Notes: generated from the sequence alone by a model not told the origin. A stretch of DNA of 64,000 nucleotides from an uncultured Sporobacter sp. (GCA_963675425.1 OY776214.1:2316978-2380977), one strand, 5' to 3'. Positions 3,058-42,959 are shown, numbered from the stretch's first letter. Made by a program: numbers and translations.

Positions 3058-3104
3058 AAAAACGGCCGCTATCTCTTGTATAAAGTGATTGCGGCCGTTT
3101 TTTT
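3058..3104. terminator. Probable bidirectional intrinsic terminator
   Basis: aaaacggccgc...gcggccgttttttt between the convergent activase and DUF169 genes. Confidence 0.65.
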
Positions 3105-3146: not shown

Positions 3147-3920
3147 TCAAATACATTGGGGATCCTCTTCCAGCTCCTGAGCCAGATCAGCAAAAACCTG
3201 TTTGTCAAATTCAATATACTTTTCCCGCCCCAGGGTATAAGCTTTGGGGACCCAGTTCATTTCGTTAAGGTTTTGGGTTATTTCAGGAATTTTTTGGTAG
3301 GGTATGGTTACCAATATCATTCCTTCCGGGAAACACTCCCTTGACTTGGCGCCGAAAGCCAAGCCGGTTACGAGATAATTGATCTTCCCGCTCTTATAGG
3401 GATAAACCAGCTGCCAGGAACAGTTTAGGACAGGCGTTGATTTGGATTCGACGATATCCCCGCTGGAATAGGATATGGCCCGGACAAGAACTTCCGCCTG
3501 GCTGGGTTTGGCGGTAAGGATGAGAAGGTCGGGTTCAAATGTCAGCTGATCCAGAGGAGCAAAAACCACATAATTCATAAGGCCTTTTTTAAACAGGTAA
3601 AATTGGTCGTATAGTCTCCCGTTGGCGCGTCCTTCCTGAAAAATGTCAAGTTTTTCGCCGAGTTGCCCGTATTCCGCAAAAGGCGGCAGGTCTTCCCAGC
3701 CCATGGCTAATTTGCCCGCGCAGTCCTCATTTTCTTTGGTAATATAAAACGGCTTGTCGCTCTCCTGAGCTTTCCAGAACATTTCGCATAAGCCGGCGGT
3801 CCCTTTCATTTTTTCAATTCCTTCGGGTTCGTGCAATAAAAATTTTACGCCTATCGGCGGCCGTTCAAAACCGAATTTATTGTAAATGGACAGGTCTTGT
3901 TTTAATGCTCTCATTTTCAT
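3147..3920 (-). CDS. DUF169-family protein
   Basis: FERPPIGVKF, LCEMFWKAQ, EDCAGKLAMG, PDLLIL and CSW motifs typical of DUF169; start placed at ATG 3920 rather than the ORF-track 3965. Confidence 0.75.
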   Translation of the reverse strand: MKMRALKQDLSIYNKFGFERPPIGVKFLLHEPEGIEKMKGTAGLCEMFWKAQESDKPFYITKENEDCAGKLAMGWEDLPPFAEYGQLGEKLDIFQEGRANGRLYDQFYLFKKGLMNYVVFAPLDQLTFEPDLLILTAKPSQAEVLVRAISYSSGDIVESKSTPVLNCSWQLVYPYKSGKINYLVTGLAFGAKSRECFPEGMILVTIPYQKIPEITQNLNEMNWVPKAYTLGREKYIEFDKQVFADLAQELEEDPQCI

Positions 3921-4071
3921 CGTTATAATAATTCCTTTCGAATCGTTCAAGGCACAAAACGGCATGAACCCTATTGTCCTTGAGCGTTATTTACTTTAAT
4001 AATTAAACAAGATAACAAGAATTCTGAACGATAAGTTGTTGATTAACCAGTCTGCAGATACGATCGATAGG

Positions 4072-4764
4072 TTACATTGGCCTTAATATTACACGGGCAG
4101 GAGCAGCATCCCCATCGTGAACTTTAAGCGGCAGACAGATCATTTCGTAGTTTCCGGGTTTTACGTCGTATAAGTCGAGCGATTCCATGATCCAGACGCC
4201 GCCGTTAAATAGGGTAACATGACCAAACACGATATCATCAAAATCAGGACCGGCTATTGCAATATAATCGATACCGGCAATAAGAGTTTTTTTCTCAACC
4301 AGGTAGAGTGCGGCATCCGGAGCAACTGCGACAAAATTATCAAACCAAGTTTTTTCCTTGGACCTGTAATAAGTAGAATTTATTGTCTTGAACAGAAGAC
4401 GTTCGCCGGTTTTAATATCATGGCGTTCAAGCTCTTTACGCCTGATTGCAGTCTTGTCCTCAATTTCGATAACACGGGCCGGCCCGATAACAACATCCAT
4501 CGGTATCTCATCGATACTGGTCCGTTTGGGAACCATTTCTTTAGAAAAATGGCGGGGAGCGTCAATATGTGTGCCGGTGTGAGGATTCACCGTCAGTTGA
4601 ACCAGATAATCCATATGGTGGTGCTTATCCGGATGGCGAACCCAATCGACACGGGGATCCAATGGATCCATCGGATTAAAATGCATGCCGTTGAAAATAG
4701 GGTAGGTCACATCGATCCACTCGGATGTGGTATTGCTGATGTCAATGGGTTTTTCCGCAGCCAA
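4072..4764 (-). CDS. Cyclase-family metal-dependent hydrolase (kynurenine formamidase/isatin hydrolase-like)
   Basis: Canonical HTGTHIDAPRH motif, GIDY, downstream His (FGHVTL) and IMESL Glu, GDAAPARVIL C-terminus. Confidence 0.9.
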   Translation of the reverse strand: MAAEKPIDISNTTSEWIDVTYPIFNGMHFNPMDPLDPRVDWVRHPDKHHHMDYLVQLTVNPHTGTHIDAPRHFSKEMVPKRTSIDEIPMDVVIGPARVIEIEDKTAIRRKELERHDIKTGERLLFKTINSTYYRSKEKTWFDNFVAVAPDAALYLVEKKTLIAGIDYIAIAGPDFDDIVFGHVTLFNGGVWIMESLDLYDVKPGNYEMICLPLKVHDGDAAPARVILRPM

Positions 4765-4806
4765 TATTCATACCTCCTAACAATTTATTATTGATAATGA
4801 AATATT

Positions 4807-5496
4807 CTATTTTAACGGTCTCAAGACGGCCCGGGCGGGAGCGGCGTCTCCGTCCAGAATTTTTATGGGCAGGCAGAATATTTCATACTGCCCCGGTTCG
4901 ACAGAGTACAAGTCAATAGCTCCCAGGAGCCAGACGCCGCTATCAAGAAGTGTTGCGCGAACCTTATCAAAGGGGTTTAGTTCCTTTTCGCCGAAGGTAA
5001 CAGTACTGTAGGGACCGAGACCTAAATAATCGAAGCCTACGACTGATACTTTTTTTTCTGCGAGAAAGCGTGCGGCTTCAAGTGTGAGGTAACAATAATA
5101 ATCAACAAAATGCTCCATTTTATAGTATGAAGAGTTAATGGTTTTAAAAAGAATCCGTTCACCCGGCTGAATATTGTGAGTTTCAAGCTCCTCAGGGTTT
5201 ATCGACACGCTGTCTTTGATTTCTATCACACGTGCCGGGCCGATAATGGCGGTCAGAGGCATCTTGTCAACACTGGTCTTGTTCGGATCAAAATGACGCG
5301 CGGTTTCGACATGGGTACCGTTATGACCGTTTATACAATATTGATACATGTAACACGCACTGCCTATGGCGGGGTCTATCACCCAGTCAAGGTGCGGCGG
5401 TATGTTGTCAGTCGGCAGATACTGCATATTGGGGCTGAGCGCATATGTAATATCTATCCAATCGGTGGAATCGCTGTTTGTTAGCATCTCTTTCAA
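4807..5496 (-). CDS. Cyclase-family paralog with degenerate metal site
   Basis: HNGTHVETARH (D>E, P>A); the equivalents of the second-metal His and Glu appear replaced (KVRATLL, LLGAID); same GDAAPARAVL tail. Confidence 0.85.
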   Translation of the reverse strand: MKEMLTNSDSTDWIDITYALSPNMQYLPTDNIPPHLDWVIDPAIGSACYMYQYCINGHNGTHVETARHFDPNKTSVDKMPLTAIIGPARVIEIKDSVSINPEELETHNIQPGERILFKTINSSYYKMEHFVDYYCYLTLEAARFLAEKKVSVVGFDYLGLGPYSTVTFGEKELNPFDKVRATLLDSGVWLLGAIDLYSVEPGQYEIFCLPIKILDGDAAPARAVLRPLK

Positions 5497-5551
5497 AATA
5501 AACCATCCATTCTTAATTTGCTAATAGTGAGATTAATTCATTTTTATACAG

Positions 5552-6850
5552 TTAAGCTAGGAAGGTCACAATCTGGGGAAATGCGACTAGTATTGCAGCA
5601 CACACAATGATTGCTATTAAAAATGGCCATATTCCTTTAAAAATATCTTCGAGAGGTACTTCTTCTTTAACGATGTCTTTTACGACATAAACATTCATTC
5701 CTACCGGAGGTGTAATAATCCCCATACCTTGTATCAGTAGTATTACTACTCCGAACCACATGGGGTCATATCCCAAAACGTTCACAACTACAGGGTAGAA
5801 AACCGGAATGGTAAGTAACACTAAAGCGGGAATGTCGATAAAACAACCTAAAACCAGGTAGACAAATAATATTGCTGCCATAATTATAAAACGTGGTAAT
5901 GATAATACACTGACAGCATTGGCTAAGGAGGTGGGAAGGTTGCTAAGCGCCATGAAGCGCCCAAAAACTATCGCTCCGGCAATTAAAAGAAGGATCATTG
6001 CAACAGAGCGGGCTGTCGAATATAGAGATCTTTTAATACCGTCCCATTTCAAATCGCCTGACAGCAACGTTACAATAAGTACCCCGAATGCACCTACGGC
6101 GCCGGCTTCAGTGGGGGTAAACCAACCGGCGAACAATCCGCCAAGGGACAGAATAAAAATAGCAACTATTTGCCAAAGGCCGCCTGTCAGAGATTTAAAT
6201 CTCTCTTTCCAGTTTGATTTTTCAGTTCTGGGAGCCAGGGCCGGATTGCGTCTAACTAAAATATAAATAACGATTATATTAAGACACAGGAGAATTATCC
6301 CGGGAATTACGGAGCATTTAAACAAAGTTTTAATTGAATTTTGCGTTGCAATACCGTATAACATTATGACGGTACTCGGAGGTATTAAAACTCCCAGGAT
6401 TCCTCCGCAAGCTACACTCGATGTTGCCAGCTTCATATCATAGTTGTATTTTTTCATCTCGGGTATGGCGATGGAGCCAATTGTGGCCGTTGCAGCCAAA
6501 ACCGATCCGCAGATTGCCCCGAAAACAGCACTGGCGCATTGAGCAGCCATAGCCAGGCCGCCCCGCCGATGCCCAATCCATTTGTTAGCCGTATCAAAAA
6601 ACTTACTGCCGATACCTGATTCATATGCAAGGTAACCCATCCATATATACATGGGCACCACAATATAATTGTAATTAGAAAACTCTTGAAATAAATTCAA
6701 AGAAACCGTTTCAAAAGCAACTTGAGGCGAAGTATATATCCACACGCCGATAAAGCCTATTAAAAGCATTGAAAATGAAATAGGCATACCCATCAACATG
6801 ACAACAAGAAAAACCAACATCAGCAACAGGCCTATTATTTCCGGGCTCAT
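5552..6850 (-). CDS. dctM: TRAP transporter large permease
   Basis: 432 aa hydrophobic protein; GGILGVLIPPS, TPTEAGAVG and ITPPVGMNVYV motifs. Confidence 0.95.
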   Translation of the reverse strand: MSPEIIGLLLMLVFLVVMLMGMPISFSMLLIGFIGVWIYTSPQVAFETVSLNLFQEFSNYNYIVVPMYIWMGYLAYESGIGSKFFDTANKWIGHRRGGLAMAAQCASAVFGAICGSVLAATATIGSIAIPEMKKYNYDMKLATSSVACGGILGVLIPPSTVIMLYGIATQNSIKTLFKCSVIPGIILLCLNIIVIYILVRRNPALAPRTEKSNWKERFKSLTGGLWQIVAIFILSLGGLFAGWFTPTEAGAVGAFGVLIVTLLSGDLKWDGIKRSLYSTARSVAMILLLIAGAIVFGRFMALSNLPTSLANAVSVLSLPRFIIMAAILFVYLVLGCFIDIPALVLLTIPVFYPVVVNVLGYDPMWFGVVILLIQGMGIITPPVGMNVYVVKDIVKEEVPLEDIFKGIWPFLIAIIVCAAILVAFPQIVTFLA

Positions 6851-7356
6851 TTTTCTTCACTTCCTTTCCCAAATTCATTTATAATTTTCATTAAAATAGC
6901 CAGAGCCAGGATCAATATACCTATTGCTAAGACATAATAAAGAGGGTAATGCGGCGTTGATGTTGTTAAAGTAGTCTTTCCGCTCAGCTTCACATTTTTA
7001 GCATAGCATGACAGAATAAACCAGCCAATTGCCCCAAACATTATCGTGCTGATTACATTAAGAATTATCCTAACCAGTTTTTGAACTATTACAGGAAATT
7101 TATCCATAATAAAAGTAATATTAACGTGGCCGTCGGTTAGATAGCAGTGGGCGAGAGACAAGCTAATTGCTGATATAAACAGCATCAACAAAATGTCATA
7201 AACACCCCTGATTGGAGTATTAAAAAAAGCCCGTAAAGCAACATTAACGACTATCAAAGCCATCATTGCAGCGATTAATATCTCACTTGCAATATTTAGA
7301 ACTGAACATAGTTTTTCTATAGTTTTGTTGATTAATTTCATATTAAACCAGCTCAC
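6847..7356 (-). CDS. dctQ: TRAP transporter small permease
   Basis: Four TM segments, GHVNITF motif, between dctP and dctM. Confidence 0.9.
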   Translation of the reverse strand: MSWFNMKLINKTIEKLCSVLNIASEILIAAMMALIVVNVALRAFFNTPIRGVYDILLMLFISAISLSLAHCYLTDGHVNITFIMDKFPVIVQKLVRIILNVISTIMFGAIGWFILSCYAKNVKLSGKTTLTTSTPHYPLYYVLAIGILILALAILMKIINEFGKGSEEK

Positions 7357-7387
7357 CTTTGATTTCCCAATATTATTTTTATTTCAT

Positions 7388-7419
7388 CGCACCCGAAGAT
7401 AATACCCCGGGTGCGATGA
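7388..7419. terminator. Stem-loop between dctP and dctQ (mRNA stabiliser or attenuator)
   Basis: tcatcgcaccc...gggtgcgatga 11-bp inverted repeat. Confidence 0.45.
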
Positions 7420-7439
7420 TCTTGTTTATTTTTATTTTT

Positions 7440-8633
7440 TTATTGATACTGAGCGATTAACGCGTCTATTCTTCCTCTCAAATCGGCAGAATAGTCTGCG
7501 AACTCTGTGTTATATTGGTCTACCAATTCTCCGATCTTTGCTAAAGCTTCGGTTCCCGGTAAGCCTTGTTCGTTTAAGAAATCTTCATATGATTGTCGTG
7601 AAGAGGACAACGCTTCTGTAATTTTTCCGTATTCTCCGTCGGAGAGCGTCGTTACTTTGAGGCCGTTCTGCAGGCCGAATTCCAGACTATCACAATATAT
7701 GTCGTCAAAAGCGGTGGACACATCTTCAAAATGCTGTTCATTAACCTCACGGATAATATTTTGGAGATCTTCAGGCAAACTGTTCCATGCATCTTTATTC
7801 ATGCAGACATTTGGTGAAGCGTTATACAAACAGGGCACTTCTACCATGTAATCGACGACTTCATATAAATTCCAGCCGACTAAAGGTTCGGTATTACCTA
7901 AAACTCCGTCTATGGTGTTTTTGGAGAGAGCTTCATAGGCTTCCGCCATTGTCATGGCTACAGGTGTTGCACCCAATGCAGCTACAGCATCGGAGGCCGA
8001 GCTATCGCACCTAATCTGCAAGCCTTTTAAATCTGCTAAGCTTTCTATCGGTTTATTAGTAAAAATGCAGCCGGGCGCCGGGGAAAAGATAAACATGAAT
8101 TCTAAATCAGAATCTACTACTTCAGGAAATGCTTTGACGTAGTCATTATTTACATTAATGGCAACTCTGCCGTTAGTCCATTCAAAACCGGGAACCGCCA
8201 GAGCATTAAACAGCGGAAGTTCGCCCGGACAATAATTATTGATAACTAAGCCTGCATCGGCAAGGCCACTGCCAATTCCTTGAAGCGCGCTGTCGGCTGC
8301 TAATAATGTTCCACCGTAATACATTGTAAATTGTACCCGCCCATTGGTGGCTTCCTCAACTTTTTCCACCCAAGGATCCATAAAGTTTTCAACCATTGGG
8401 TGCCCGTCGGGCATTGGGGAGGCAAAAGTAAAGACGTAAGTTTCCGAAGAATTTTCTTTGCCAGAAGCAGCGCCTTCACTGGAAGCAGCGTCCCCGCCGG
8501 AAGCAGCGTCCCCGCCGGAATCAGCGCCTTCTGCTGCATTATTGTTGGCACATCCGGAGAATAACATAAAAGTGGTGAGAATCAGGGCCAGGGCTACCAA
8601 AATTGAAATACCTTTAAAATTTTTAATCTTCAA
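7440..8633 (-). CDS. dctP: TRAP substrate-binding lipoprotein
   Basis: Lipobox FSGC; low-complexity linker; YYGGTL, DLKGLQIR, LGATPVAMTMAEAYEALSKNTIDG motifs; TTG start with GAGGAGG RBS. Confidence 0.93.
   Translation of the reverse strand: MKIKNFKGISILVALALILTTFMLFSGCANNNAAEGADSGGDAASGGDAASSEGAASGKENSSETYVFTFASPMPDGHPMVENFMDPWVEKVEEATNGRVQFTMYYGGTLLAADSALQGIGSGLADAGLVINNYCPGELPLFNALAVPGFEWTNGRVAINVNNDYVKAFPEVVDSDLEFMFIFSPAPGCIFTNKPIESLADLKGLQIRCDSSASDAVAALGATPVAMTMAEAYEALSKNTIDGVLGNTEPLVGWNLYEVVDYMVEVPCLYNASPNVCMNKDAWNSLPEDLQNIIREVNEQHFEDVSTAFDDIYCDSLEFGLQNGLKVTTLSDGEYGKITEALSSSRQSYEDFLNEQGLPGTEALAKIGELVDQYNTEFADYSADLRGRIDALIAQYQ
8461..8531. repeat. 18-bp coding tandem repeat (GGDAAS linker) in dctP
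   Basis: ggaagcagcgtccccgcc twice exactly, plus degenerate flanking copies. Confidence 0.8.
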
Positions 8634-8976
8634 AACAATTCCTCCTCATAATTTTTATAGTTCATGCTGATCTTTTAAGGATATTTAGCCCAAATATAAT
8701 TCTCATCCCTTCCTTCCCTTCCTTCTTGATAGGCTATCTCTTTCCTTTCAGCACGTTCATTCACCCAATATATAGCCGGCAGATTTCATTTTCTTGCAAA
8801 TAATATTGAGTAATTATTGTAATCCAAGCTGTAAGAAATTAGCGGCTTATTCGTTCTTGGTTCCTGGAATACTTCCGCCTCTCATATCTGCTATGTATAT
8901 TCCGGGCATTTTTATATGCGGTTGAGCCTCTGTAAACATGGGGGCGTTCAAATATAATCCGTATTTTTACAGTGTA

Positions 8977-9285
8977 TATTTACGCCGTAAGATTATCACG
9001 TCGCTGTTCTAATAGCAATACCTAAATTAAATAGTTATGCTCGTCTTTTTTTGTTATTATTGTTATTTGTCAAAGGGGATTAGGGTGATGTTTCTTGCAG
9101 AATGCACATGACTTATCGACATACCGAGCTTTACAAACAGAATTTTATGCCGACAGGCAGGCGTTTAAAATTAACTGCAATTAATATTTACGCCGTAAGA
9201 ATATCATGCCTTTTTTCTAATAGCAATACCTTATTTAAAATCATTATGCGAACTTATTTTTGTTATTGTTTTCACTTGTCAAGGG
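8977..9285. promoter_or_regulatory. Duplicated ~105-bp intergenic block (8977-9078 and 9184-9285) with TTAC-N3-GTAA palindromes
   Basis: atatttacgccgtaaga-tatca...tctaatagcaatacct...ttatgc...tgttatt...ttgtcaa-gg occurs twice; third short copy tttacaatgtaagaatat near 9316-9333. Confidence 0.7.
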
Positions 9286-9348
9286 TCATTAAATATGTTA
9301 CTCTGATAATATAAATTTACAATGTAAGAATATAAAGGAGTTGATTAC

Positions 9349-9621
9349 ATGAATTGGGAACAGATCGTTATTTATAAAAAAGATGAGGTTGATGCTTTAT
9401 TAACAGAAAGAGGGATACTTGATGAGGACATAAAAAAAGTAATTTCGCAGGCTATAGAAAGCGGCGAAAAATTATACCAGGAAGAGGAGTACAGATTTCT
9501 GGCTAAAGCCAAGCTGGAGAGGTTTACAGTTTATGTGGAATATTCACCTGAAAATGACGGATTCCGCATCCATACAGGTTATAGCCATCGAGTTGATTTT
9601 AAATCAGAGCATGTAGAATAG
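9349..9621 (+). CDS. Small protein resembling the isolated C-terminal domain of the oxidoreductase/dicluster protein of DVU_155x-type loci
   Basis: LLTERGILDEDIKKVISQAIESGEKL...FTVYVEYSPENDGFRIHTGYSHR; AAGGAG RBS; family resemblance from recall. Confidence 0.65.
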   Translation: MNWEQIVIYKKDEVDALLTERGILDEDIKKVISQAIESGEKLYQEEEYRFLAKAKLERFTVYVEYSPENDGFRIHTGYSHRVDFKSEHVE

Positions 9622-9635
9622 GAGGTGTTTAATAA

Positions 9636-9827
9636 ATGGGTGAATGGTTATGTTCAACTTGTAAAGTAAAAATGGAAGAAGTGGATGATATCCAGATCTT
9701 TTATGGAGAAGTAGACTTGCCGGATGCATTAGGGATCAGATGCCCGAGCTGCGGCCGAGAATATCTATTGGAACAATTTGTGACGGATGAACTCATCGCT
9801 GCTGAAGAAATGCTTGAAGGCAAATAG
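9636..9827 (+). CDS. DVU_1557-family Zn-ribbon redox protein
   Basis: WLCSTCKV...IRCPSCGREYL...AAEEMLEGK; two CxxC pairs; GGAGG RBS. Confidence 0.8.
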   Translation: MGEWLCSTCKVKMEEVDDIQIFYGEVDLPDALGIRCPSCGREYLLEQFVTDELIAAEEMLEGK

Positions 9828-9838
9828 GAGAAACCTGA

Positions 9839-10576
9839 ATGGCGAAGACAGAAAAACCGTTGATTGAAGTATTTGGTCAGCGTCCTGGCCGGTTTAAGTT
9901 AGCGCTGAAGGGCGCTGAAATAGCAGGCATAAACTGCCGAAGTAAAGTTTTGGAAGTTGGCTGTTCTTACGGCGACACCTCGTTTTTGCTGGCGGAGTCC
10001 TTTGACTGTGAAGTAACCGGGATTGATTTAGAGCGTGAGTACATTGTCCAGGCCGCTGCCAGGACAGATCATACCGACCATAAAGTGCAATTTTGCGTTG
10101 CTGATGTGGTAAAAATGCCTTTTATGGATCAAGCGTTTGATTATATATTTTGCGAAGCGGCGTATTCTCTTTTAAAAGATAAAGAAGCTGCCGTAGATGA
10201 ATATCATAGAGTTTTGGGCGAAAAAGGAAAGGTAATTGTTAATGATTTTTATTTAAAAAGACAAGTTTCGGAAAACGTTCAAAAAAAGATGGATTTTATA
10301 CCGTGCTTTTATGGAATAAAAACTGCTGAAGAATATTGTAAGATTTTTAGCGAGAAAGGATTCAGTCAACTGTTGTTTGCTGATTATTCAAGTGAAATTA
10401 TCAGGATTTCAATGTGGCTGAGCAAAGCGTATGGCGTATCTTCCAAAGAATTGAACCGGCTGTTTGTCAAGCTTTTAAGCCAAAATGATGACGATCATTG
10501 TGATTGTTTAAACGACAGCAACGAATTTTTCAAGGAAGCCAGGCTGGGTTACGGCCAATTTATATTCGGAAAATAA
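9839..10576 (+). CDS. Class I SAM-dependent methyltransferase (DVU_1556-like by context)
   Basis: VLEVGCSYGDT motif I, VTGIDL, MPFMDQAFDYIFCE. Confidence 0.85.
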   Translation: MAKTEKPLIEVFGQRPGRFKLALKGAEIAGINCRSKVLEVGCSYGDTSFLLAESFDCEVTGIDLEREYIVQAAARTDHTDHKVQFCVADVVKMPFMDQAFDYIFCEAAYSLLKDKEAAVDEYHRVLGEKGKVIVNDFYLKRQVSENVQKKMDFIPCFYGIKTAEEYCKIFSEKGFSQLLFADYSSEIIRISMWLSKAYGVSSKELNRLFVKLLSQNDDDHCDCLNDSNEFFKEARLGYGQFIFGK

Positions 10577-10595
10577 TGATAAGAAGGGGATTCAA

Positions 10596-11384
10596 ATTAT
10601 TTTTGCAGGTGTAGATATTGGGTCGACAACGGCAAAAGCAGTATTGCTTGATGAGAATGAAGAAATTTTAGCGTCGGCAATTGTTTATACGAGCTTTGAC
10701 CGCAATGAAAGCGGTATGGAAGTATTAAATCTGGCATTGGAAGAATGCGGGAAATCATTAAAAGATGTAGAATATGTGGTTTCAACGGGTTATGGCAGAA
10801 GAGCCCTGAAGATATCCAATGATGCCATACCGGAGATCATTGGCCACGCTTTGGGAACCCAAAAATTATATCCCGGGGTACGGACCATTATTGACATCGG
10901 AGGCCAGGACAGCAAAGTCATCGCGCTTGATGAAAAAGGAATAATCGAAAAATTTGAGATGAATGACAAATGCGCTGCAGGAACAGGCCGCTTTTTTGAA
11001 GTTTTAGCAGGCCGTTTGTTAAATATATCAATGGATGAATTGGGGCCGCTTTATCTAAAAGCTGAAAATCCTTGTACAATCAGCAGTATGTGTACCATTT
11101 TTGCCGAATCGGAGATTATTTCCTACTTGTCGGAAGGTAAGCTCAAAGAAGACATCATTGCAGGAATGATTAATTCCGTAGCCCGCAGGGTGGTGGCCAT
11201 GGGTAAAACCGGGCAGATTCGATATGAAGAGCCGATTATTCTCTCGGGGGGAGTAGCCAAAAACATCGGGGCGGTAAAAGCCTTTTCAGAAATTATCGGC
11301 AAAGAAGTTCAGGCTATTGAAAACCCACAGTTAACGGGGGCAATGGGGGCGGCACTGAAAGCAAAGGACGAATTTACGAAATAG
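10596..11384 (+). CDS. 2-hydroxyacyl-CoA dehydratase/benzoyl-CoA reductase activase (ASKHA ATPase, HgdC/BadF-like)
   Basis: In-frame upstream of the ORF-track start: (I)IFAGVDIGSTTAKAVLL; STGYGR, IDIGGQDSK, MNDKCAAGTGRF, ISSMCTIFAESE, GGVAKN; probable ATT start at 10596. Confidence 0.93.
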   Translation: MIFAGVDIGSTTAKAVLLDENEEILASAIVYTSFDRNESGMEVLNLALEECGKSLKDVEYVVSTGYGRRALKISNDAIPEIIGHALGTQKLYPGVRTIIDIGGQDSKVIALDEKGIIEKFEMNDKCAAGTGRFFEVLAGRLLNISMDELGPLYLKAENPCTISSMCTIFAESEIISYLSEGKLKEDIIAGMINSVARRVVAMGKTGQIRYEEPIILSGGVAKNIGAVKAFSEIIGKEVQAIENPQLTGAMGAALKAKDEFTK

Positions 11385-11398
11385 GAAGGTGAACAAGG

Positions 11399-12793
11399 GT
11401 GAAGGATTTTGACGTGGTTGTAATCGGCGGTGGTTCCGGCGGTTGTGCCGCTGCAAGCAGGTCGGCCGATCTCGGGAAAAAGGTGGCGTTAATCGAAGGC
11501 AGAGGGAAAGAAGGCCTCGGCGGAACATGTATTAATAGGGGCTGTATACCGGCTAAAATACTTTTGGCATCCGCTGAAACGTATTCCGGGGTGCAGAAAG
11601 CCAAAGATTTTGGAATTGGGGTAACAGGCATCTCCTTTGACTATGAAAAAATCGAGCAGAAAAAACAGGCGTCAATCAAAACCTTGCGGTTCGGCTTGCA
11701 GAATTACATTCTTAAACCCAGAGGAATTGAAATTATCACCGGTTTTGGTAAGATAATTGACTCTCATACGGTAGAGGTGCATGACAACGGGCAGACAGAA
11801 CGGGTTCGGGGTGAAAATATAATTATTGCTTCCGGTTCCGAGCCGGCTATGATTCCATCTTTTCATATTGATGGCCATAACGTCATTACCAGTGACGAAG
11901 CTTTAGAGGTTCGGGAGATCCCCCCGAAGATTACAATTATCGGAGCGGGCGCCCTGGGACTTGAGTTTGCGCATTTGTTTTCAACGTTTGGCAGCAAGGT
12001 GACAGTTGTGGAAATGGCGCCTCAGGTCGTGCCGGCTTTGAAGGATAAGGAATTCACCGGTATGGTTCAAAAATACTTGGAGAAGCAGGGAATTACCGTC
12101 AAGACCGGAGTCAAAATCGACGGCGTAGAAGTCGTTGATGCAGGAAAGGTCGTTTCCAGTTTAAGCAACGGTGAGAAAATCGAAAGCAGTAAAGTGCTGG
12201 TCGCCATCGGCCGCAAACTGAATACCGAAAATATGGGGATTTCGGAATCAGGAATAAAAATGGAAAAGGGCTGTATTCTTGTTGATGATGAAATGAGAAC
12301 GAATATCCCTAATGTATTAGCGGTAGGAGATATCGTCCACGGCCCCCAGCTTTCCCATAAAGCGCAACGGGAAGGAATCGTAGCTGCCGAAGTGATTGCA
12401 GGACTGAGTACGAAAATGGATTATGAGGTTATTCCCTGGGCTATTTTTACACAGCCTGAAATTGCAGCGGTAGGGCTGACCAGGGACGAAGCGGAAGAAC
12501 AGGGAATTAAAACTATTGTCGGCTCCATGCCTTTGATGGCGAATGAAAAGGCCAATGTCATGAAAAAAACAACCGGACAGGTTAAAATTGTAGCTCGCGT
12601 AGATAACAAACAGGTAATTGGCGCTCAGATTTTTGCAGCTGAAGCTTCCATTTTAATTGGCGAATTGGCCGTGGCAGTAAAAAACAAAATTTCCATTGAA
12701 GGCTTATCCAACACGGTTCATGTTCATCCGTCCTTGTCCGAAGCGATTATGGAAGCGAGTAAGAGCAGCTTAGGCAAAGCCTTTCACAAATAA
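11399..12793 (+). CDS. lpdA: Dihydrolipoyl dehydrogenase-like flavoprotein disulfide reductase
   Basis: GGGSGG, redox disulfide GGTCINRGCIPAK, GAGALGLE, HVHPSLSE; GTG start. Confidence 0.92.
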   Translation: MKDFDVVVIGGGSGGCAAASRSADLGKKVALIEGRGKEGLGGTCINRGCIPAKILLASAETYSGVQKAKDFGIGVTGISFDYEKIEQKKQASIKTLRFGLQNYILKPRGIEIITGFGKIIDSHTVEVHDNGQTERVRGENIIIASGSEPAMIPSFHIDGHNVITSDEALEVREIPPKITIIGAGALGLEFAHLFSTFGSKVTVVEMAPQVVPALKDKEFTGMVQKYLEKQGITVKTGVKIDGVEVVDAGKVVSSLSNGEKIESSKVLVAIGRKLNTENMGISESGIKMEKGCILVDDEMRTNIPNVLAVGDIVHGPQLSHKAQREGIVAAEVIAGLSTKMDYEVIPWAIFTQPEIAAVGLTRDEAEEQGIKTIVGSMPLMANEKANVMKKTTGQVKIVARVDNKQVIGAQIFAAEASILIGELAVAVKNKISIEGLSNTVHVHPSLSEAIMEASKSSLGKAFHK

Positions 12794-12834
12794 ATTTCAA
12801 CGAAATTATTTACCCCAAAAAGGAGGCTAAAAGA

Positions 12835-13989
12835 ATGGAAAAAACTTTACGAGAATTGGATGAAGCAGCGAAAAAACGCCCCATTCAGCTGAAAGAGGCA
12901 AAGAAACAAGGCAAAAAGGTTATTCAATACACGGGTAATTTTATACCACCGGAAATGATTTATGCGGCAGGAGCGGAGCCGTATCTTATGTGCAGGGGCG
13001 GAGAACCTGAACCGCCGGACGCTGTCCTGGAGTATATGCTGCGTTTTATGAATCCGCTGGCCAGGTCCATGGCCGGTTATCACATGCTGGGCCTTGATCC
13101 TGTAACGCCGATATCTGATCTGATCGTGACCCAGCAGACCGATTGTCATGTAGGCAGGGTGACAGAACTGTTGGAATTTTTAAAACTGCCCATTCATAAA
13201 GTAGGTGTTCCCTCCGACTGGAAAAAAGGATTTACAGCTGAGTATTACTATAAGTCTTTAGATAAATTAAAAAAAAGACTGGAGGATATAACCGGCAATA
13301 GTATCACGAACGACAATCTGAAGAAATATATCGGTTATACCAACCGGATTAATCGAGTATTAAGAAAAATCGACGACCTGCGTAAAAAAGATAATCCGCC
13401 GCTCGGGGAAAACGAATTCATTCACCTCAATCATTATTCTTTGCTGTGCGAGCCTGAATTTGCAGCTGACAAACTGGAAGAACTATATGAAAAGATAAAA
13501 GACGCTCCCGGCAAGTTCCCGGAAAAAGCTCCCAGATTGCTTTTCGCGGGGCATGCCCTGGCAATCGGAGATTACATTGTCCCTAAACTGATCGAGGACT
13601 ATGGCTCCGTGATTGTTACAGAAATGCTTGATGAAGGAATCCGGCCTTTCAAGTTTGATATAGAAACCGAAGGGGATATGCTTCGTAATTTTGGGGAAAC
13701 CATGTTTTTGAAAAAGACACCTATTAATGTGTTCCAGCCTTCCTGGGAAGACAGGTTTGCCTACATGAAGCAGCTCATCAGTGACTATAAGGTAGACGGC
13801 GTAATTTGGTATCAATTATGTTTCGACGAAATTTACGACATGGAGTGTACCTGCCTGGCTAAATGGCTCGGTGAATTGAACATACCGCTTTTAAAACTGG
13901 AATCCTCTTATGAATACTCCAGGGAGGCAATGGGCCCGCTAAAAACAAGAGTTGAGAGTTTTCTCGAATCTATAAAAGGGAGGAAATAG
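12835..13989 (+). CDS. 2-hydroxyacyl-CoA dehydratase-family subunit (beta/HgdB/BcrC-like)
   Basis: IQYTGNFIPPEMIYAAG, LEDITGNSITNDNLKK, DYKVDGVIWYQLCFDE, LKTRVESFLE. Confidence 0.88.
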   Translation: MEKTLRELDEAAKKRPIQLKEAKKQGKKVIQYTGNFIPPEMIYAAGAEPYLMCRGGEPEPPDAVLEYMLRFMNPLARSMAGYHMLGLDPVTPISDLIVTQQTDCHVGRVTELLEFLKLPIHKVGVPSDWKKGFTAEYYYKSLDKLKKRLEDITGNSITNDNLKKYIGYTNRINRVLRKIDDLRKKDNPPLGENEFIHLNHYSLLCEPEFAADKLEELYEKIKDAPGKFPEKAPRLLFAGHALAIGDYIVPKLIEDYGSVIVTEMLDEGIRPFKFDIETEGDMLRNFGETMFLKKTPINVFQPSWEDRFAYMKQLISDYKVDGVIWYQLCFDEIYDMECTCLAKWLGELNIPLLKLESSYEYSREAMGPLKTRVESFLESIKGRK

Positions 13990-13990
13990 C

Positions 13991-15415
13991 ATGGCTACTA
14001 ATGTGTATGAAGAGTTTTTGGAGCTTTGTGCTTTTGAGCCGGAGGAAATACCGGAAATCCTGCCGCAATGGATCGAGGCCGCTAAGACTTTTGAGCTGAC
14101 GGAAGAGGACATCCGCTTCTCTATAGAAAAGTGGATCCCGGAGAATTGGGATATCCAGTATAGGGGTATCCGCAAGATGATTGGTGCTTGGATCAGGGAA
14201 CTGATTGAACTTAGCAAGGCAACGAAGTATAAAGAAGCGGGCGCCAAGATAATCTATGGGATCATACCGGCTATTACAACCAGTTATCAGGCGATGAAAT
14301 ACAGCGCCGGGGACAATATTTACATAAGTTTTCCCGACGCTATGCTGGTAACGGTCCTGAATGCATTTTTCCATAAAGTCAACCCCTACTTGGAATGTGC
14401 GGAGGAAAACGGCTTTACCTATGGCTGCCGTCATTGTGCGTTGAATAAAACAAGGATTGCAGCCCGCTGGAAAAAAGTGATCCCGGCTCCCGATGTGATC
14501 TGGTCCTGGGGGTTTAACTGCGACGAAGGACCGAAAACGGATGAATATATTCAATGCCTGTTTGATAAGGATTGGAAATACGTTATTACCAGGCTTCCGC
14601 ACGATACCAGTTTTGGGGAGAACGACGACGAACTGGAAGACCGGGTAGAATTTGTGGCTCAGGAGATCAAGGACGGCCTGAGACAAATTGAGGAGATAAC
14701 GGGAATTGAAATAACGGAAGAGCATATGAAAAAAGCGCTGCAAGATTCCAACAGGTATGCGTTTAAAAACGGGATGCTCGTTAGTTTAATGTCCAAAGCT
14801 GATCCCGTGCCTCTGGGTGGAAGTGATATCGTCAATTTCCAGCAGCCGATGGGTGTGCCCTTTAATACCGGTCTAAAATACCTGGAGGAAGCGATTGATT
14901 TGACCATCAAAGAAGTCAGACAAGCCATAAAAGACGGGAAAGGCGTGGCTCCCAAAGGCGCTCCCAAAGTAGCCTTTTACGGCGTGCCTATTGCCGTACC
15001 CTGGGTTGACAGAATGTTCCGGGAGAACGGGGTTGCCCCTACGTTAAGTTTTAATCTGTCGCCAACGAAAAAAATGCTGATGCCTCAAAAATATACGGAC
15101 CCGTATATGGCAACAGCCGAACAATGGTTAAGAATGCCCTTGGGCATGAACATGAGAAGTGAAACAGATACCATGGTGCAAAAAATAAAAGATAATAAGC
15201 CGGATGCCGTGGTTATGGGTTTCTTCGACTTTGACAGGTGGCTCGGCGCCCAGCAAAAGATGGCGGCGAAGCTTATGGAAGATGAGACGGGGGTGTCTAC
15301 TTTTTATATGGAAGCGGACTGGTGGGAAGACAGGGACTATAGTCCGGAAGCCCTTCGTACCAGGATAGAAAGTATTTCCCAGGTATTAAAGCTTAAAAAA
15401 ATAAGCAATGAATAG
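13991..15415 (+). CDS. 2-hydroxyacyl-CoA dehydratase-family subunit (alpha-like), paralog 1, with N-terminal extension
   Basis: CRHCALNK, GFNCDEGPK, LEEITGIEITEEHMKKAL, EADWWEDRDYSPEALRTRIESI. Confidence 0.85.
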   Translation: MATNVYEEFLELCAFEPEEIPEILPQWIEAAKTFELTEEDIRFSIEKWIPENWDIQYRGIRKMIGAWIRELIELSKATKYKEAGAKIIYGIIPAITTSYQAMKYSAGDNIYISFPDAMLVTVLNAFFHKVNPYLECAEENGFTYGCRHCALNKTRIAARWKKVIPAPDVIWSWGFNCDEGPKTDEYIQCLFDKDWKYVITRLPHDTSFGENDDELEDRVEFVAQEIKDGLRQIEEITGIEITEEHMKKALQDSNRYAFKNGMLVSLMSKADPVPLGGSDIVNFQQPMGVPFNTGLKYLEEAIDLTIKEVRQAIKDGKGVAPKGAPKVAFYGVPIAVPWVDRMFRENGVAPTLSFNLSPTKKMLMPQKYTDPYMATAEQWLRMPLGMNMRSETDTMVQKIKDNKPDAVVMGFFDFDRWLGAQQKMAAKLMEDETGVSTFYMEADWWEDRDYSPEALRTRIESISQVLKLKKISNE

Positions 15416-15425
15416 TATTGAGCGA

Positions 15426-15561
15426 AAGCATAGCCAGTTAATGCTTAGTGTATAATAATTATTGGCCAGAAATAAGGAGGAATAGCGAAACTATTCCTCC
15501 TGTATACGAACTTGTTAATGTTGCCAACGTTTACCTGATACATGCCGGCTAATGGCTGTGC
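15426..15561 (+). other. Structured intergenic segment with a strong hairpin
   Basis: 11-bp perfect stem aggaggaatag/ctattcctcct (15475-15501); 15428-15440 can pair imperfectly with 15550-15561. Confidence 0.45.
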
Positions 15562-15635
15562 TTGCTTTTAGAATAAAATTAAGGTAATGTTTTCTATAGG
15601 GCAGTATCAATAATAATTGGAAGGCGCATGAGGCT

Positions 15636-17057
15636 ATGAATAATAATATTTATAAAGAGTTTTTAATGCTGACCGGTTTTGAAAAAGAAGAAATTGCAGA
15701 GTATTTGCCTGAATGGATAAAAGCCTCAAAAAAATTGGGTATTTCTGAAGAGGATATGAATCATGCTGTTAGAGAATGGCTACCCAAACACTGGAGTATT
15801 AACTTAAGGGGAATTAGGAAATGTATTGGCGCTTATATCAGAGAAGTAATTGAAATAACAAAAATATTTGAATATAAACAAAACGGAATTAAAGTGGTTT
15901 ATGGCTCTTTACCGGCTAATCCGATTAGTTTTCAGGCGATCAAAATAAGCGGCGGAGAAAAGGTTTTTGTGGGTTATCCGGGAATTCACATTGTTACAGT
16001 CTTGGGTTCCTTTTTTCATAAGACCTCGGCGTTTACTGAAAAGACTAATAAATGCATTCTGAATGCCGGTTGTCCTCACTGTGGCCTGACCAAGATGAGA
16101 TTGAGTGCCAAAATGGCGGAAGTAATTCCTTCGCCCGACGCCATTTGGAGCTGGGGATTTAATTGTAACGAAGCACCAAAAATGGATGAGTTTATTCATT
16201 GTTATGCTGATGCAAATTGGAAATCAGTATATTGCAGCCTTCCCCATGATACCTATTTAGGGGAAATAGAAAATGAAAGCCAAGAGAGGGTAAAGTATTT
16301 AGCTTTGCAAATTGAAGACGGGCAGCGGCAAATTGAAAAAATAACCGGGATCAAAGTAAGCGAGCAGCATTTTAACCAGGCCCTGGAGGATGCCGACCGG
16401 TTATTGCAAAAAGTTAATTGTCTCAATGATTTGGTTATTAATGCGGACCCGCAACCCTTAAGCGGCAATGAATTATCCCTTATCGAACAGATGATAACCA
16501 TAGCCTTTAATACCGGTTTAAAATATATGGAAGAGGCTATTGATATCACTATCGAGGAAGTGCGGGATTTAATTGACAGAAAAGAAGGAATTTTGCCGGT
16601 TGGAGCGCCTAAGCTGGGTTGTTATTTTGTCCCCTTCTGCGTGCCATGGGTTAATGGGTTATTCCTGGAAAACGGCGTGAATTTATCTTTTAGCACGTTC
16701 TATACAGCGGCGGATAAATTCCTGGAAAAGTCAAGCTATCAGGACCCATTCAGCATAATTGCTGAACAATGGCTGCAAATGCCGGGCAGTGTCAATATAG
16801 CATACGAAGTGGAACTGAATTGCCGGATACTTAGTAAATATAAGCCTGATGCCATGCTGCTTGGTTTCTACAGCTTTGAAAGATGGGTGGGGGTACATCA
16901 CAAAATAATTGTTAATAAGATTGAAGAAAAAATGAAAATACCTCATTTTTATATAGAAGGGGACATCTGGGAAGACGGGATGTTTCGCCTGGATGATTTA
17001 AGAACAAGGATCGAAACTATTTGCAATTTCTTGAAAATGAATAAAATGATTATTTAG
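15636..17057 (+). CDS. 2-hydroxyacyl-CoA dehydratase-family alpha-like paralog 2
   Basis: Colinear with 13991 protein: CPHCGLTK, GFNCNEAPK, ADPQPLSGNE, EGDIWED, LRTRIETI. Confidence 0.85.
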   Translation: MNNNIYKEFLMLTGFEKEEIAEYLPEWIKASKKLGISEEDMNHAVREWLPKHWSINLRGIRKCIGAYIREVIEITKIFEYKQNGIKVVYGSLPANPISFQAIKISGGEKVFVGYPGIHIVTVLGSFFHKTSAFTEKTNKCILNAGCPHCGLTKMRLSAKMAEVIPSPDAIWSWGFNCNEAPKMDEFIHCYADANWKSVYCSLPHDTYLGEIENESQERVKYLALQIEDGQRQIEKITGIKVSEQHFNQALEDADRLLQKVNCLNDLVINADPQPLSGNELSLIEQMITIAFNTGLKYMEEAIDITIEEVRDLIDRKEGILPVGAPKLGCYFVPFCVPWVNGLFLENGVNLSFSTFYTAADKFLEKSSYQDPFSIIAEQWLQMPGSVNIAYEVELNCRILSKYKPDAMLLGFYSFERWVGVHHKIIVNKIEEKMKIPHFYIEGDIWEDGMFRLDDLRTRIETICNFLKMNKMII

Positions 17058-17080
17058 ACTGTTTATTAGGAGCAGGTTAT

Positions 17081-18511
17081 ATGGGGGCGTTTTATGAAAA
17101 AATTCTTTCTCTTTGCGGCTTTGATCAGCAAGAAATAGCAAAGAATACCGGCAAACTACGCAGGGCTTGCGAAAAATTTGGGATTGATGAAGAACAGGTA
17201 GCCTTTGCTGCAGAGAAGTGGATACCTCAAAATTATGATTTAAAGCTGGAGGGAATAAGGAAACTTATTGGCGTTTATATCCGTGAATTTCTCAGCATTT
17301 TGGACCTGTCTCTGGATAAAAATGATAATCGTAAAATTGTCTACGGGACGGTTCCTTCCCCTGTGCCTCTTTTTCATGCCTTGAAAGACAGCTGCAAGGA
17401 GGGAATATATACTGGTGCCCCGGATTTTGTTTTCATGATCGTGTTAAACAGCTTTTTTCATTGGCGTAATATAGGTTTGGAAAGATTGGAGGAACAAGGA
17501 TTTACTCAAGCTTGCAGGCATTGCGCCCTTAATAAAATGCGGGCATTTATCTATTCCGATAATTATATTCCCAGTCCTGATATCGTCTGGACCTGGGGAA
17601 CTGCTTGTGATGAGGCGCCTAAAACTGAAGAGTTTATCCAATTTTGTTATGGTAAACAGTGGTTTTATGTTTCCACAAAAATGCCGCATGATACCTGCAA
17701 AGATGAACAGGGCGACAAGGAGCGGATAACATATCTGGCCAGGCAAATACAAGACGCCGTTTATACAATTGAACAAAAATGCCGATTAAAACTATCCCAA
17801 GAAGCTGTGAGGAAGGCAATGTATAATTGGGGTAAAATTACGGCCAAGATATATTACCTGAATACTTTGATTGCCAATGCCGACCCGGTCCCACTGGGAG
17901 GTAATGAGCTTTCCCTGATTAATTCATTGCAGCTGGCGCCATTGAATATAGAGGTTGAGCTTATTGAGGAGTCTATTGATATTATCATTAAAGAAGTAAA
18001 GGAACGGATCAGAAACGCAGAGGGAATATTACCACGTGGAGCTCCGAGGTTAGGTTGCTATCTTGTCCCTTTTTGCCTTCCCCATATTGTTAAACATTTT
18101 GAAAGGGCCGGTGTTGCTTTAACATTTAATACTTGTATGATGAGGGCAGGCATTCCGGATAATAAAGTACATGGTAGCTGTAAAGTGAGAGATAATAAAA
18201 CGGTTAAGCATCCTTATGAAATAATAGCCGGACAATGGCTGAGCTTGCCGTTGTTTAATAATGTTTTTTATGAAGCAAAGGCAATTGCTCATTTGCTTGC
18301 CAAGTATAAGAATGATGGTTTGATACTCGGTTTTTTCACATTTGACCGTTGGTTGGGGGCACACCAAAACCTTCTGAAAATCATACTCAAAGAATCAATT
18401 GCGAAACCGGTTTTTATAATGGAAGCAAATTTCTGGGATGAACGGTTTAATAATAAACAAAGAATAATAAATCAAATTGAAAGTATCGGAAGATTATTGG
18501 AGAAAGCGTAA
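17081..18511 (+). CDS. 2-hydroxyacyl-CoA dehydratase-family alpha-like paralog 3
   Basis: CRHCALNK, GTACDEAPK, ADPVPLGGNE, EANFWDER. Confidence 0.83.
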   Translation: MGAFYEKILSLCGFDQQEIAKNTGKLRRACEKFGIDEEQVAFAAEKWIPQNYDLKLEGIRKLIGVYIREFLSILDLSLDKNDNRKIVYGTVPSPVPLFHALKDSCKEGIYTGAPDFVFMIVLNSFFHWRNIGLERLEEQGFTQACRHCALNKMRAFIYSDNYIPSPDIVWTWGTACDEAPKTEEFIQFCYGKQWFYVSTKMPHDTCKDEQGDKERITYLARQIQDAVYTIEQKCRLKLSQEAVRKAMYNWGKITAKIYYLNTLIANADPVPLGGNELSLINSLQLAPLNIEVELIEESIDIIIKEVKERIRNAEGILPRGAPRLGCYLVPFCLPHIVKHFERAGVALTFNTCMMRAGIPDNKVHGSCKVRDNKTVKHPYEIIAGQWLSLPLFNNVFYEAKAIAHLLAKYKNDGLILGFFTFDRWLGAHQNLLKIILKESIAKPVFIMEANFWDERFNNKQRIINQIESIGRLLEKA

Positions 18512-19108
18512 ATGCCAAGAAAAAAAGTGATATTTGAAAAACAGAAAATTATTGATGCTTCTTTTCATATTATTAAAAGTGAGGGCAATGAAGCTTTCTC
18601 GGCCAGAAGATTAGCCACGGAACTAAACATTTCGTCAATGACTGTCTATAATTATTACAAAAACATTGATGAAATAAAAAAAGAAGTTATTATTAGAGGT
18701 TTTAGTATTCTTTACAAGATGATTTTTCGTGATATGGAAAACAAAAAGGAAAAGTTGGATGAAGACGGTATTGGTTGTTTATGCAGAATTATCGCGCTCA
18801 ATATGATGAATTTCGCTTTGGAAAATAAAGAAATATATATTTTGATGTTTACTGAGTACGGTTATAAGTTTAGAAATGATCACGAGATCAGGCTTTTTTA
18901 CAATTTCTTGCCGCAACTAGCCAATAGCATTAAACTTGCTCAATCTGAAGCGCAGGAATTAAAAAAAAGGTGCTATATATTTGAAAGCATGATTCAAAGG
19001 CTAATTATGGAAAAATTAAATAAGCTATATGATTATTCCCTGGAAGAATATAATGATTATATTGATTTTAGTTTAAAGCATTTATTTAGGATCGATTCAG
19101 AAGGATGA
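18512..19108 (+). CDS. TetR/AcrR-family transcriptional regulator
   Basis: N-terminal HTH SARRLATELNISSMTVYNYYKNIDEI; TAA-ATG coupling to the upstream gene. Confidence 0.92.
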   Translation: MPRKKVIFEKQKIIDASFHIIKSEGNEAFSARRLATELNISSMTVYNYYKNIDEIKKEVIIRGFSILYKMIFRDMENKKEKLDEDGIGCLCRIIALNMMNFALENKEIYILMFTEYGYKFRNDHEIRLFYNFLPQLANSIKLAQSEAQELKKRCYIFESMIQRLIMEKLNKLYDYSLEEYNDYIDFSLKHLFRIDSEG

Positions 19109-19117
19109 GGTGGAAAA

Positions 19118-21758: not shown

Positions 21759-21769
21759 GGTATTTATTT

Positions 21770-38856: not shown

Positions 38857-38905
38857 TTGTTTTCCTCCTTTTAATTTATATTGTCAGCTGATGCTGCAAT
38901 AAACT

Positions 38906-39850
38906 TTAAAGTGTCCATTTTTCAATTTCGCTTTCTGTTCCAAGAACCATGTGGGTTGGTGTAAGAAAATGCTCTTTGCCCACCAGGTAGTCAATACCCT
39001 CGGCGGCACGGTCATACGAAACCGATTTTTTATGGCGTTCAACCATCGGGTTTGGCTCAGGAATAGCTGATAAAAGCGATCTGGTATAGGGATGTATAGG
39101 ATTATTAAAAATCTCGTCCTTTGTTCCGGCTTCCACCAGGTGACCCAGATGAATAACACCTATGTCGTCAGATATATACTTGACCATAGACAGATCGTGA
39201 GCAATAAACAGATATGTCAGGTTCCGCTCAATTTGCAGGTCTTTCATCAAATTGACGACCTGTGCCTGAATGGACACGTCAAGAGCTGATATGCATTCGT
39301 CAGCTATGATTAGGTCCGGCTCCATGATAATGGCTCTTGCGATACCCACACGCTGCCGCTGCCCACCGGAAAACATGTGCGGATAGCGACACGCAAACTC
39401 GCGAGACAGGCCGACGCGCTCCAACATTGCACACACTTTTTCCTCGCGCTCAGCTGCGGACTTGCAAAGATGATTGGCGTCGAGCCCTTCGGCGACAATA
39501 TCAATAATCTTTTTTCGTGGGTTCAGGCTGGCCATGGGGTCCTGAAAAATCATTTGCATCTTCTGTGTAATAAAGCGGCGGGTTTCTTTATTGAGTTTGC
39601 CGGCGATTTCCACATTGTTAAAGGTGACGCTGCCGGCGGTCGGGTCGTAGAGCCGAATCAGCGCCCTGCCGATGGTAGATTTACCGCTCCCAGACTCTCC
39701 GACCAACCCGAAGGTGCTGCCGCGTCTTATTTTGAAGCTGACACCGTCAACCGCTTTGACCAACTGGTCTCTACTGGGGCAAAAATACTGTTTGAGGGCG
39801 TTGACGTCCAAAATGTTTTCTGTATCTTTATTGGTTTTCATCACCGGCAC
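38906..39850 (-). CDS. oppF: Oligopeptide ABC ATP-binding protein
   Basis: GESGSGKST, FSGGQRQR, HPYTRSLLSA. Confidence 0.95.
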   Translation of the reverse strand: MPVMKTNKDTENILDVNALKQYFCPSRDQLVKAVDGVSFKIRRGSTFGLVGESGSGKSTIGRALIRLYDPTAGSVTFNNVEIAGKLNKETRRFITQKMQMIFQDPMASLNPRKKIIDIVAEGLDANHLCKSAAEREEKVCAMLERVGLSREFACRYPHMFSGGQRQRVGIARAIIMEPDLIIADECISALDVSIQAQVVNLMKDLQIERNLTYLFIAHDLSMVKYISDDIGVIHLGHLVEAGTKDEIFNNPIHPYTRSLLSAIPEPNPMVERHKKSVSYDRAAEGIDYLVGKEHFLTPTHMVLGTESEIEKWTL

Positions 39851-40943: not shown

Positions 40944-40954
40944 CTGTATCCTCC

Positions 40955-42883: not shown

Positions 42884-42959
42884 AATTTCCCTCCGTTGCT
42901 TGAAAACCTTTGTGTTATTGGCACTTGCTTAGTACGCAACATTAATTTGTTGCACCGCT

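Follow-up and report, generated by a model that had tools for sequence, protein, structure and literature searches.

We analyzed six minus-strand genes, dctP-dctQ-dctM-cycA-cycB and a DUF169 gene, located at positions 3147-8633 of a 64,000-nucleotide stretch of DNA (hereafter the window) from an uncultured Sporobacter sp. (GCA_963675425.1 OY776214.1:2316978-2380977). The six genes form one operon (hereafter the uptake arm) within an island (3147-23134, about 20 kb) that was acquired laterally, and the locus is a real, lineage-specific uptake-plus-hydrolysis operon with a TRAP importer of the aromatic-acid type. The imported substrate is probably an aromatic acid conjugate. The explanation that best accounts for the locus as a whole, to which we assign a probability of about 0.4, combines aromatic-type uptake, cleavage by the cycA and cycB products, a contribution of the DUF169 protein, and a product that becomes available to the divergently transcribed operon. 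An aryl-substituted carboxylic acid with a hydrolyzable amide, ester, or lactone bond would be imported by the TRAP system and cleaved by a putative CycA-CycB heterodimer with one working active site, and the DUF169 protein would act on the imported acid or escort it, as seems to be so in other uptake operons. The divergent operon encodes a DVU_1553-type ligase and an ATP-driven HAD-like enzyme, to which the aromatic acid released by cleavage could then be available. Both operons were inherited together, and one operator set may serve them.

All six genes were matched by Pfam (Table 1) and are separated by gaps of -4 to about 150 nt, with dctM and dctQ overlapping by 4 nt. Strong Shine-Dalgarno sequences precede the TTG starts of dctP (ribosome-binding site GAGGAGG) and cycB. 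No convincing internal terminator was found in the six-gene unit, the same-strand candidates being weak and all within open reading frames. The start of the DUF169 gene is more likely the ATG at 3920 than the one at 3965, because its homologs are 251-258 aa long. At 3058-3104, a strong terminator hairpin (-24.8 and -22.6 kcal/mol, one value per strand), with an A-run and a T-run flanking its stem, parts the unit from the convergent genes for a glycyl-radical enzyme (GRE) and its activase. On the other side, the unit diverges from a plus-strand operon that starts at 9349 and encodes two TrsS proteins, a DVU_1553-family ligase, a DVU_1556-like methyltransferase, an activase, an E3-like reductase, and four HGD-D proteins (hereafter the Trs/HAD operon). 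The earlier note had described a dctPQM-cyclase-cyclase-DUF169 operon diverging across 715 bp, and the Pfam matches, the tight spacing, and the 8634-9348 gap confirm that description.

Table 1. Features of the uptake arm and of the adjoining intergenic DNA (window positions)
Feature	Position	Strand	Description
dctP	7440-8633	-	Pfam PF03480, E 6e-33; TRAP lipoprotein substrate-binding subunit, aromatic-carboxylate-binder clade
dctQ	6847-7356	-	Pfam PF04290, E 7e-24; small membrane subunit
dctM	5552-6850	-	Pfam PF06808, E 9e-91; TIGR00786 312 bits, above cut-off; large permease subunit
cycA	4807-5496	-	Pfam PF04199, E 1e-22; cyclase-family paralog, degenerate metal site HHEHRG
cycB	4072-4764	-	Pfam PF04199, E 3e-20; cyclase-family metallohydrolase, complete binuclear-site signature HHDHHE
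DUF169 gene	3147-3920 (alternative upstream ATG at 3965)	-	Pfam PF02596, E 6e-31
Bidirectional intrinsic terminator	3058-3104	both	Hairpin with 12-bp GC-rich stem, between the DUF169 gene and the convergent GRE activase gene
Shared intergenic region, 715 bp	8634-9348		Between the divergent operons; three palindromic-motif copies

The TRAP importer and its predicted ligand

All three TRAP subunits (P, Q, and M) are encoded by consecutive genes, and NCBIfam concurs on the transporter. The substrate-binding subunit DctP carries the lipobox LFSGC followed by a Gly/Ala/Ser-rich low-complexity tether, as for a Gram-positive lipoprotein. It keeps the domain-2 arginine R208 (motif LQIRCD), which is nearly invariant in a 40-sequence alignment and aligns with the arginine of 4n6d. 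In TRAP binders, this residue clamps the substrate carboxylate and is conserved in about 97% of cases (PMC5812351).

The best PDB sequence matches of DctP obtained with HMMER were 4n6d (E 2e-35), Dde_0634 (4pgn/4pgp/4nap, 3e-29), 4p56 (1e-28), and TarP_Sse (7nr2/7nra, 5e-27), and the values for SiaP and the isethionate binder were about 1e-15. The ligand of Dde_0634 is indole-3-acetate (PMC9973260), and TarPQM imports lignin-derived aromatics (PMC3610893); the ligands of 4n6d and 4p56 are taken from truncated PDB entry titles only. Foldseek comparison of the AlphaFold2 model of DctP (pLDDT 90.1) returned, down to E 9e-23, only TarP, marine aromatic-acid binders, 4n6d, 4p56, 5im2, and Dde_0634. 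The matched TarP structures contain bound coumarate, ferulate, cinnamate, caffeate, or 4-hydroxyphenylacetate, or are in the open form, and the marine binders carry the title "specific for aromatic acid ligands". Binders of the next ligand class, namely isethionate, pyroglutamate, and lactate, appeared from 2e-20.

The importer resembles the TarP-type systems of R. palustris, Chromohalobacter, and Sagittula (7nr2, 7nra, 7nsw, 7ntd, 7nrr, 7nqg) in being a three-subunit, DctP-type TRAP system; these binders and Dde_0634 are the top neighbors of DctP in sequence and structure and share the carboxylate-binding arginine. The Sporobacter DctP differs from them in being a lipoprotein of the Gram-positive type that carries a long low-complexity tether and shares only 20-28% identity with the solved aromatic binders, and its ligand is a prediction. 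Its close homologs are scarce: one shares 82% identity and four share 53-59%, the next lie at 37%, and very few thus exceed 50%. Because of the low identity to the solved binders, the small number of close homologs, and the warning of a review that TRAP ligand prediction is unreliable or difficult (PMC5812351), our best guess at the class of ligand bound by DctP is an aromatic carboxylate, and we do not count this as a result. The proposal that the arm hints at the substrate of the island is reasonable at the level of compound class (an aromatic carboxylate, perhaps a conjugate), and the specific N-heterocycle and ring-opening pathway is not supported.

The cyclase pair and the DUF169 protein

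The cycA and cycB genes are the sole PF04199 genes of the genome (80.9 and 73.2 bits; gathering cut-off, 23.1), and their products are cytoplasmic proteins of the cyclase fold. The best PDB matches of CycB were the KynB structures 4cz1 and 4co9 (E 9e-29), with an end-to-end alignment to 4cz1. In KynB, His50, His54, Asp56, His161, and Glu173 coordinate two zinc ions and His60 is catalytic (PMC4243253). CycB keeps the equivalents of all these residues, with the motif HTGTHIDAPRH (canonical HxGTHxDxPxH) and the later His and Glu. The CycA motif reads HNGTHVETARH, with Glu for Asp, Arg at the position of His161, and Gly at that of Glu173, so that two ligands are lost and a third is changed. The full HHDHHE signature was found in 80 of the 82 aligned homologs; HHEHRG was confined to CycA and its ortholog at L001, a locus of a second Sporobacter metagenome-assembled genome.

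Comparison with L001 gave dN/dS ratios of 0.083 for cycA, 0.065 for cycB, 0.080 for the DUF169 gene, and 0.20-0.23 for the transporter genes. The cycA gene is under strong purifying selection and is not decaying; that it might be a pseudogene was ruled out by its ratio of 0.08. CycA is probably a non-catalytic partner. The substrate pocket of KynB is lined by residues of the partner subunit (PMC4243253), and it is therefore reasonable to assume a heterodimer of CycA and CycB in which one site works; the hydrolase is probably a heteropair of an active and an inactive subunit.

Neither cyclase is a KynB ortholog. Their TIGR03035 scores (CycB, 123 bits; CycA, 103 bits) lie below the cut-off of 223, the position of KynB Trp20 is occupied by Asn in CycB and Leu in CycA, so that the aromatic residue is absent in both, and no tryptophan 2,3-dioxygenase (PF03301) was found in the 97.6%-complete genome, whereas control genomes gave matches. 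PF04199 also holds an esterase, dienelactone hydrolase, and lactonases (PMC5341072), as well as a phosphotriesterase (PMC12135135). Because of this diversity and the lack of KynB orthology, the chemistry that may be claimed for the cyclases is limited to metal-dependent hydrolysis of an amide, ester, or lactone and does not extend to heterocycle ring opening.

Compared with KynB (4cz1, 4co9, 4cob, 4cog; TIGR03035), CycB has the same fold and size in addition to the shared site residues, but in Sporobacter an intact gene is paired with a degenerate one, whereas KynB is a single gene. Isatin hydrolase (5nna, 5nmp), esterase MGS0169, trans-dienelactone hydrolase, and cyclase-phosphotriesterase share the metal-dependent hydrolysis of amides, esters, or lactones via the cyclase motif (PMC5341072, PMC6117287). 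However, the alignment with isatin hydrolase is confined to about 46 residues of the motif region (E 2e-8), and the variant of MGS0169 (Gln-Gln-Asp-His) is unlike the substitutions of CycA. Of the two cyclases proposed in the earlier note, CycB has the complete KynB-type site and CycA has a degenerate one; kynurenine formamidase and isatin hydrolase, which the note cited as members of the family, are only distant analogies. Ring opening and an N-heterocyclic substrate received no direct support, and the name "ring-opening arm" was an interpretation rather than an observation.

Three metagenome contigs (L024, L025, and L028) carry two or three fully intact tandem cyclase paralogs in a conserved block with the order CCG protein, LUD/Fe-S protein, class-I fumarase-type alpha and beta subunits, cyclases, SDR, FAD_binding_4, and CCG, which looks like an uncharacterized hydroxy- or keto-acid pathway. 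A pyridine-nucleotide-disulfide oxidoreductase gene lies beside or near the cyclase homolog in 11 of 80 loci (L041, L043, L052, L057, L059, L068, L074, L078, L087, L089, and L091), often together with Zn-ADH, 6PGD-like, and GH15 genes. In L074, a TrsS-like radical SAM gene (33%) additionally lies 7 kb from the cyclase homolog, together with a methyltransferase gene.

The DUF169 protein covers the full profile of its family (PF02596, COG2043) with 108.3 bits against a gathering cut-off of 27, and C60, C82, C182, R113, D146, and R162 are invariant in the DUF169 alignment. Its AlphaFold2 model has a pLDDT of 90.4, and no fold relatives were found in the PDB (best Foldseek E 0.35; best VIA-align Z 5.0, below the tool's stated noise level). 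A sequence search of the PDB gave no match, the ESM Atlas returned DUF169 clusters only, and the literature on DUF169 consisted of gene-list mentions; no paper naming both "cyclase" and "DUF169" was found. Homologs with 38-70% identity lie directly behind transporter genes, namely MFS in L002, Peripla_BP_6/ABC in L003 and L005, and SBP_bac_5 in L007, and a TRAP system lies about 6 kb from the homolog in L009. Eight DUF169 genes are present in the genome itself, and their catabolic surroundings vary. One of these loci (L196, G000:C1:3212001-3229000) contains Peripla_BP_4, SDR-like, GRE (817 aa), URO-D-like, DUF169 (37% identity), DAO+Rieske, and MFS genes, and URO-D-like genes adjoin DUF169 in L005 and L009 too. 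Two others (L197/L198, G000:C1:4560001-4566000 and 3033001-3042000) comprise one locus with an enolase-superfamily gene followed by a C_GCAxxG_C_C gene that overlaps DUF169, and another with DUF169 followed by two BD-FAE (feruloyl/acetyl-esterase-type) hydrolase genes and an ABC transporter. A C_GCAxxG_C_C gene occurs near DUF169 in L002 as well.

The island and the divergent operons

The uptake arm and the Trs/HAD operon have GC contents of 0.429 and 0.422, at the 5.5th and 4.3rd percentiles of 5-kb windows, in a genome of 50.9% GC with flanks of 0.567 (GRE unit) and 0.482 (right). The GRE gene itself has a GC content of 0.60 and a third-position GC content (GC3) of 0.80, compared with a GC content of about 0.43 for the arm. 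Composition breaks exactly at 2956/3147 and 23134/23216. The region 3147-23134 had no DNA match in three congeneric genomes; one of these (G272) keeps the GRE and activase genes at 76-79% DNA identity, followed by homologs of the window genes 37171-45956. The equal low GC and the joint absence from the three congeners identify the two arms as one island, as previously proposed, and they were inherited together.

The shared intergenic region contains a 15-nt palindromic motif, ATTTACNNNGTAAGA, at 8978, 9186, and 9315. Two of these sites belong to the two units of a 107-nt direct repeat (8976-9082 and 9184-9291), of which there is also a third, partial copy (span 8976-9333), and the motif opens each. 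The three occurrences in the window compare with 0.33 expected, and the entire 4.6-Mb genome has only these three. The motif blocks are conserved in the intergenic region of L001, where the surrounding sequence has diverged, and an Rfam search of the region gave no match. The ATTTACNNNGTAAGA copies are candidate operators for the TetR regulator of the island (18512-19108), and the two arms may be co-regulated through one operator set.

No cyclase homologs (E <= 1e-20) were found in a sample of 300 family genomes and no HGD-alpha homologs (E <= 1e-40) in a sample of about 400 class genomes, which indicates that both are rare; a literature search for TrsS or DVU_1553 found nothing. In 20 TrsS loci from other Bacillota, the recurring core genes encode a small dicluster protein, a methyltransferase, TrsS, and the ligase. 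A second, canonical Trs cassette of the genome lies about 0.9 Mb away (L144, G000:C1:1378500-1398499); it has ligase, methyltransferase, and TrsS genes and lacks HGD, TRAP, cyclase, and DUF169 genes. At the GRE side of the island, the activase gene of G272 is preceded by a tandem pair of GRE paralogs with 60% and 88% identity to the window GRE (L160, G272:C1:2386000-2405999), and L001 has a 61%-identical GRE paralog behind DUF169, followed by an IS200-family transposase gene (11038-14210). These arrangements suggest rearrangement at the island border. In total, the genome encodes 17 GREs, eight DUF169 proteins, and nine DctP proteins and measures 4.6 Mb, compared with mostly 2-3 Mb for other genomes of the family; its radical-enzyme and uptake repertoire is unusually rich for that family.

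Alternative explanations and implications

Several observations weigh against the proposed sequence of uptake, cleavage, and hand-over to the Trs/HAD operon. The heterodimer, the substrate, and the role of the DUF169 protein are all inferred; in addition to the low identity of DctP to solved binders, the unreliability of TRAP ligand prediction, and the missing aromatic residue at the Trp20 position, the nearest clostridial relatives of DctP (32-38% identity) have uninformative gene neighbors. Within 10 kb on each side of the 20 other Bacillota TrsS loci, cyclase, DUF169, and HGD genes were never found, and a TRAP system occurred once, at a distance of 7 kb. TRAP, HGD, and activase genes were near none of the 80 metagenomic cyclase loci (39-53% identity), among which DUF169 was adjacent in one (L030) and a TrsS-like gene 7 kb away in one (L074). 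The full arrangement was seen only in near-identical Sporobacter assemblies. The previously suggested transfer of the product to a PaaK-like ligase and the HAD-type enzyme has no backing across genomes, as none of the 20 Trs cassettes has a cyclase or DUF169 gene, and a metabolic hand-over between the arms is an inference; the link of the uptake arm to the radical operon is plausible but unproven.

The uptake arm may instead be an independent uptake-and-hydrolysis cassette that came to lie beside the Trs/HAD operon through assembly on one mobile island, with no metabolite passed between them, which we consider somewhat unlikely. In agreement with it, the arm genes are missing from all 20 Trs cassettes elsewhere; the cyclase and DUF169 homologs of other genomes never lie beside HGD, activase, or DVU_1553-type ligase genes, the TrsS-like gene of L074 being a single case in about 90 loci; and the unrelated contexts of the three parts of the arm elsewhere suggest a recent mosaic. 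However, the two arms match in GC and GC3, are present or absent jointly within exact island borders, and share an intergenic region with a genome-unique motif, and the Trs/HAD operon encodes a ligase yet lacks its own transporter. A service to the adjacent GRE, an HpfG-like dehydratase, for instance by import of its substrate, is very unlikely. The LysR-GRE-activase unit does lack a transporter, L001 has an HpfG-like GRE (1019.7 bits, NF048009) behind DUF169 on the same strand, and another DUF169 paralog of the genome lies two genes behind another GRE. With 17 GREs and eight DUF169 genes in the genome, we estimate that two such adjacencies are only weakly above chance. Moreover, the GRE differs sharply from the arm in GC, the units converge on an intervening terminator, G272 carries the GRE cluster but not the arm, and the isethionate binder matches DctP much more weakly than the aromatic binders.

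Other explanations concern the substrate itself. A non-aromatic compound, such as a small hydroxy-, keto-, or lactam/lactone acid that is imported and then opened or hydrolyzed by the cyclase pair, is quite unlikely. It would fit the tandem cyclase arrays of L024, L025, and L028, which lie among class-I fumarase/tartrate-dehydratase-like subunits, LUD-domain proteins, GlcD/CCG-type oxidoreductases, and SDR genes, as well as the GlcD/CCG types that adjoin DUF169 in L002 and L003, the dienelactone hydrolase and esterases within PF04199 (PMC5341072), and the uncertainty of TRAP ligand prediction. In contrast, DctP ranks with aromatic binders in both sequence and structure, and binders of pyroglutamate, lactate, and isethionate score about 1000-fold worse. 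That the cyclases represent genuine kynurenine formamidases or isatin hydrolases serving a tryptophan or indole pathway is highly improbable. The KynB matches, the arylformamidase label given to homologs by JGI, and the binding of indole acids by the related Dde_0634 speak for this assignment, but the Trp20 substitutions and the apparently anaerobic nature of the organism speak against it, and the kynurenine-pathway reading was rejected on the sub-cut-off TIGR03035 scores and the lack of a tryptophan dioxygenase match in the 97.6%-complete genome.

The uptake of an aromatic-type acid followed by CycA-CycB cleavage can also be extended to the whole 20-kb island as a single anaerobic route, so far undescribed, that handles an aromatic acid conjugate. 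This route would comprise TarP-like uptake, deconjugation by a catalytic cyclase with a pseudo-enzyme partner, processing or escort by the DUF169 protein, activation by the DVU_1553 ligase, and the TrsS radical SAM pair with the ATP-driven HAD-like enzyme, all under one genome-unique operator set; in this complete form, we regard it as doubtful and of low probability.

Should the connection with the radical operon not hold, the arm is an ordinary operon for uptake and hydrolysis that is specific to this lineage. If the substrate is indeed an aromatic acid, the importer would provide, through one soluble lipoprotein, the first experimental handle on the substrate of the unsolved Trs/HAD-like radical operon. 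CycA/CycB would be the first cyclase-fold hydrolase known to us that pairs an active with a degenerate subunit. DUF169 is a large family without a known function or, by the present searches, a solved structural relative, and its eight copies make this genome a good system in which to study it.

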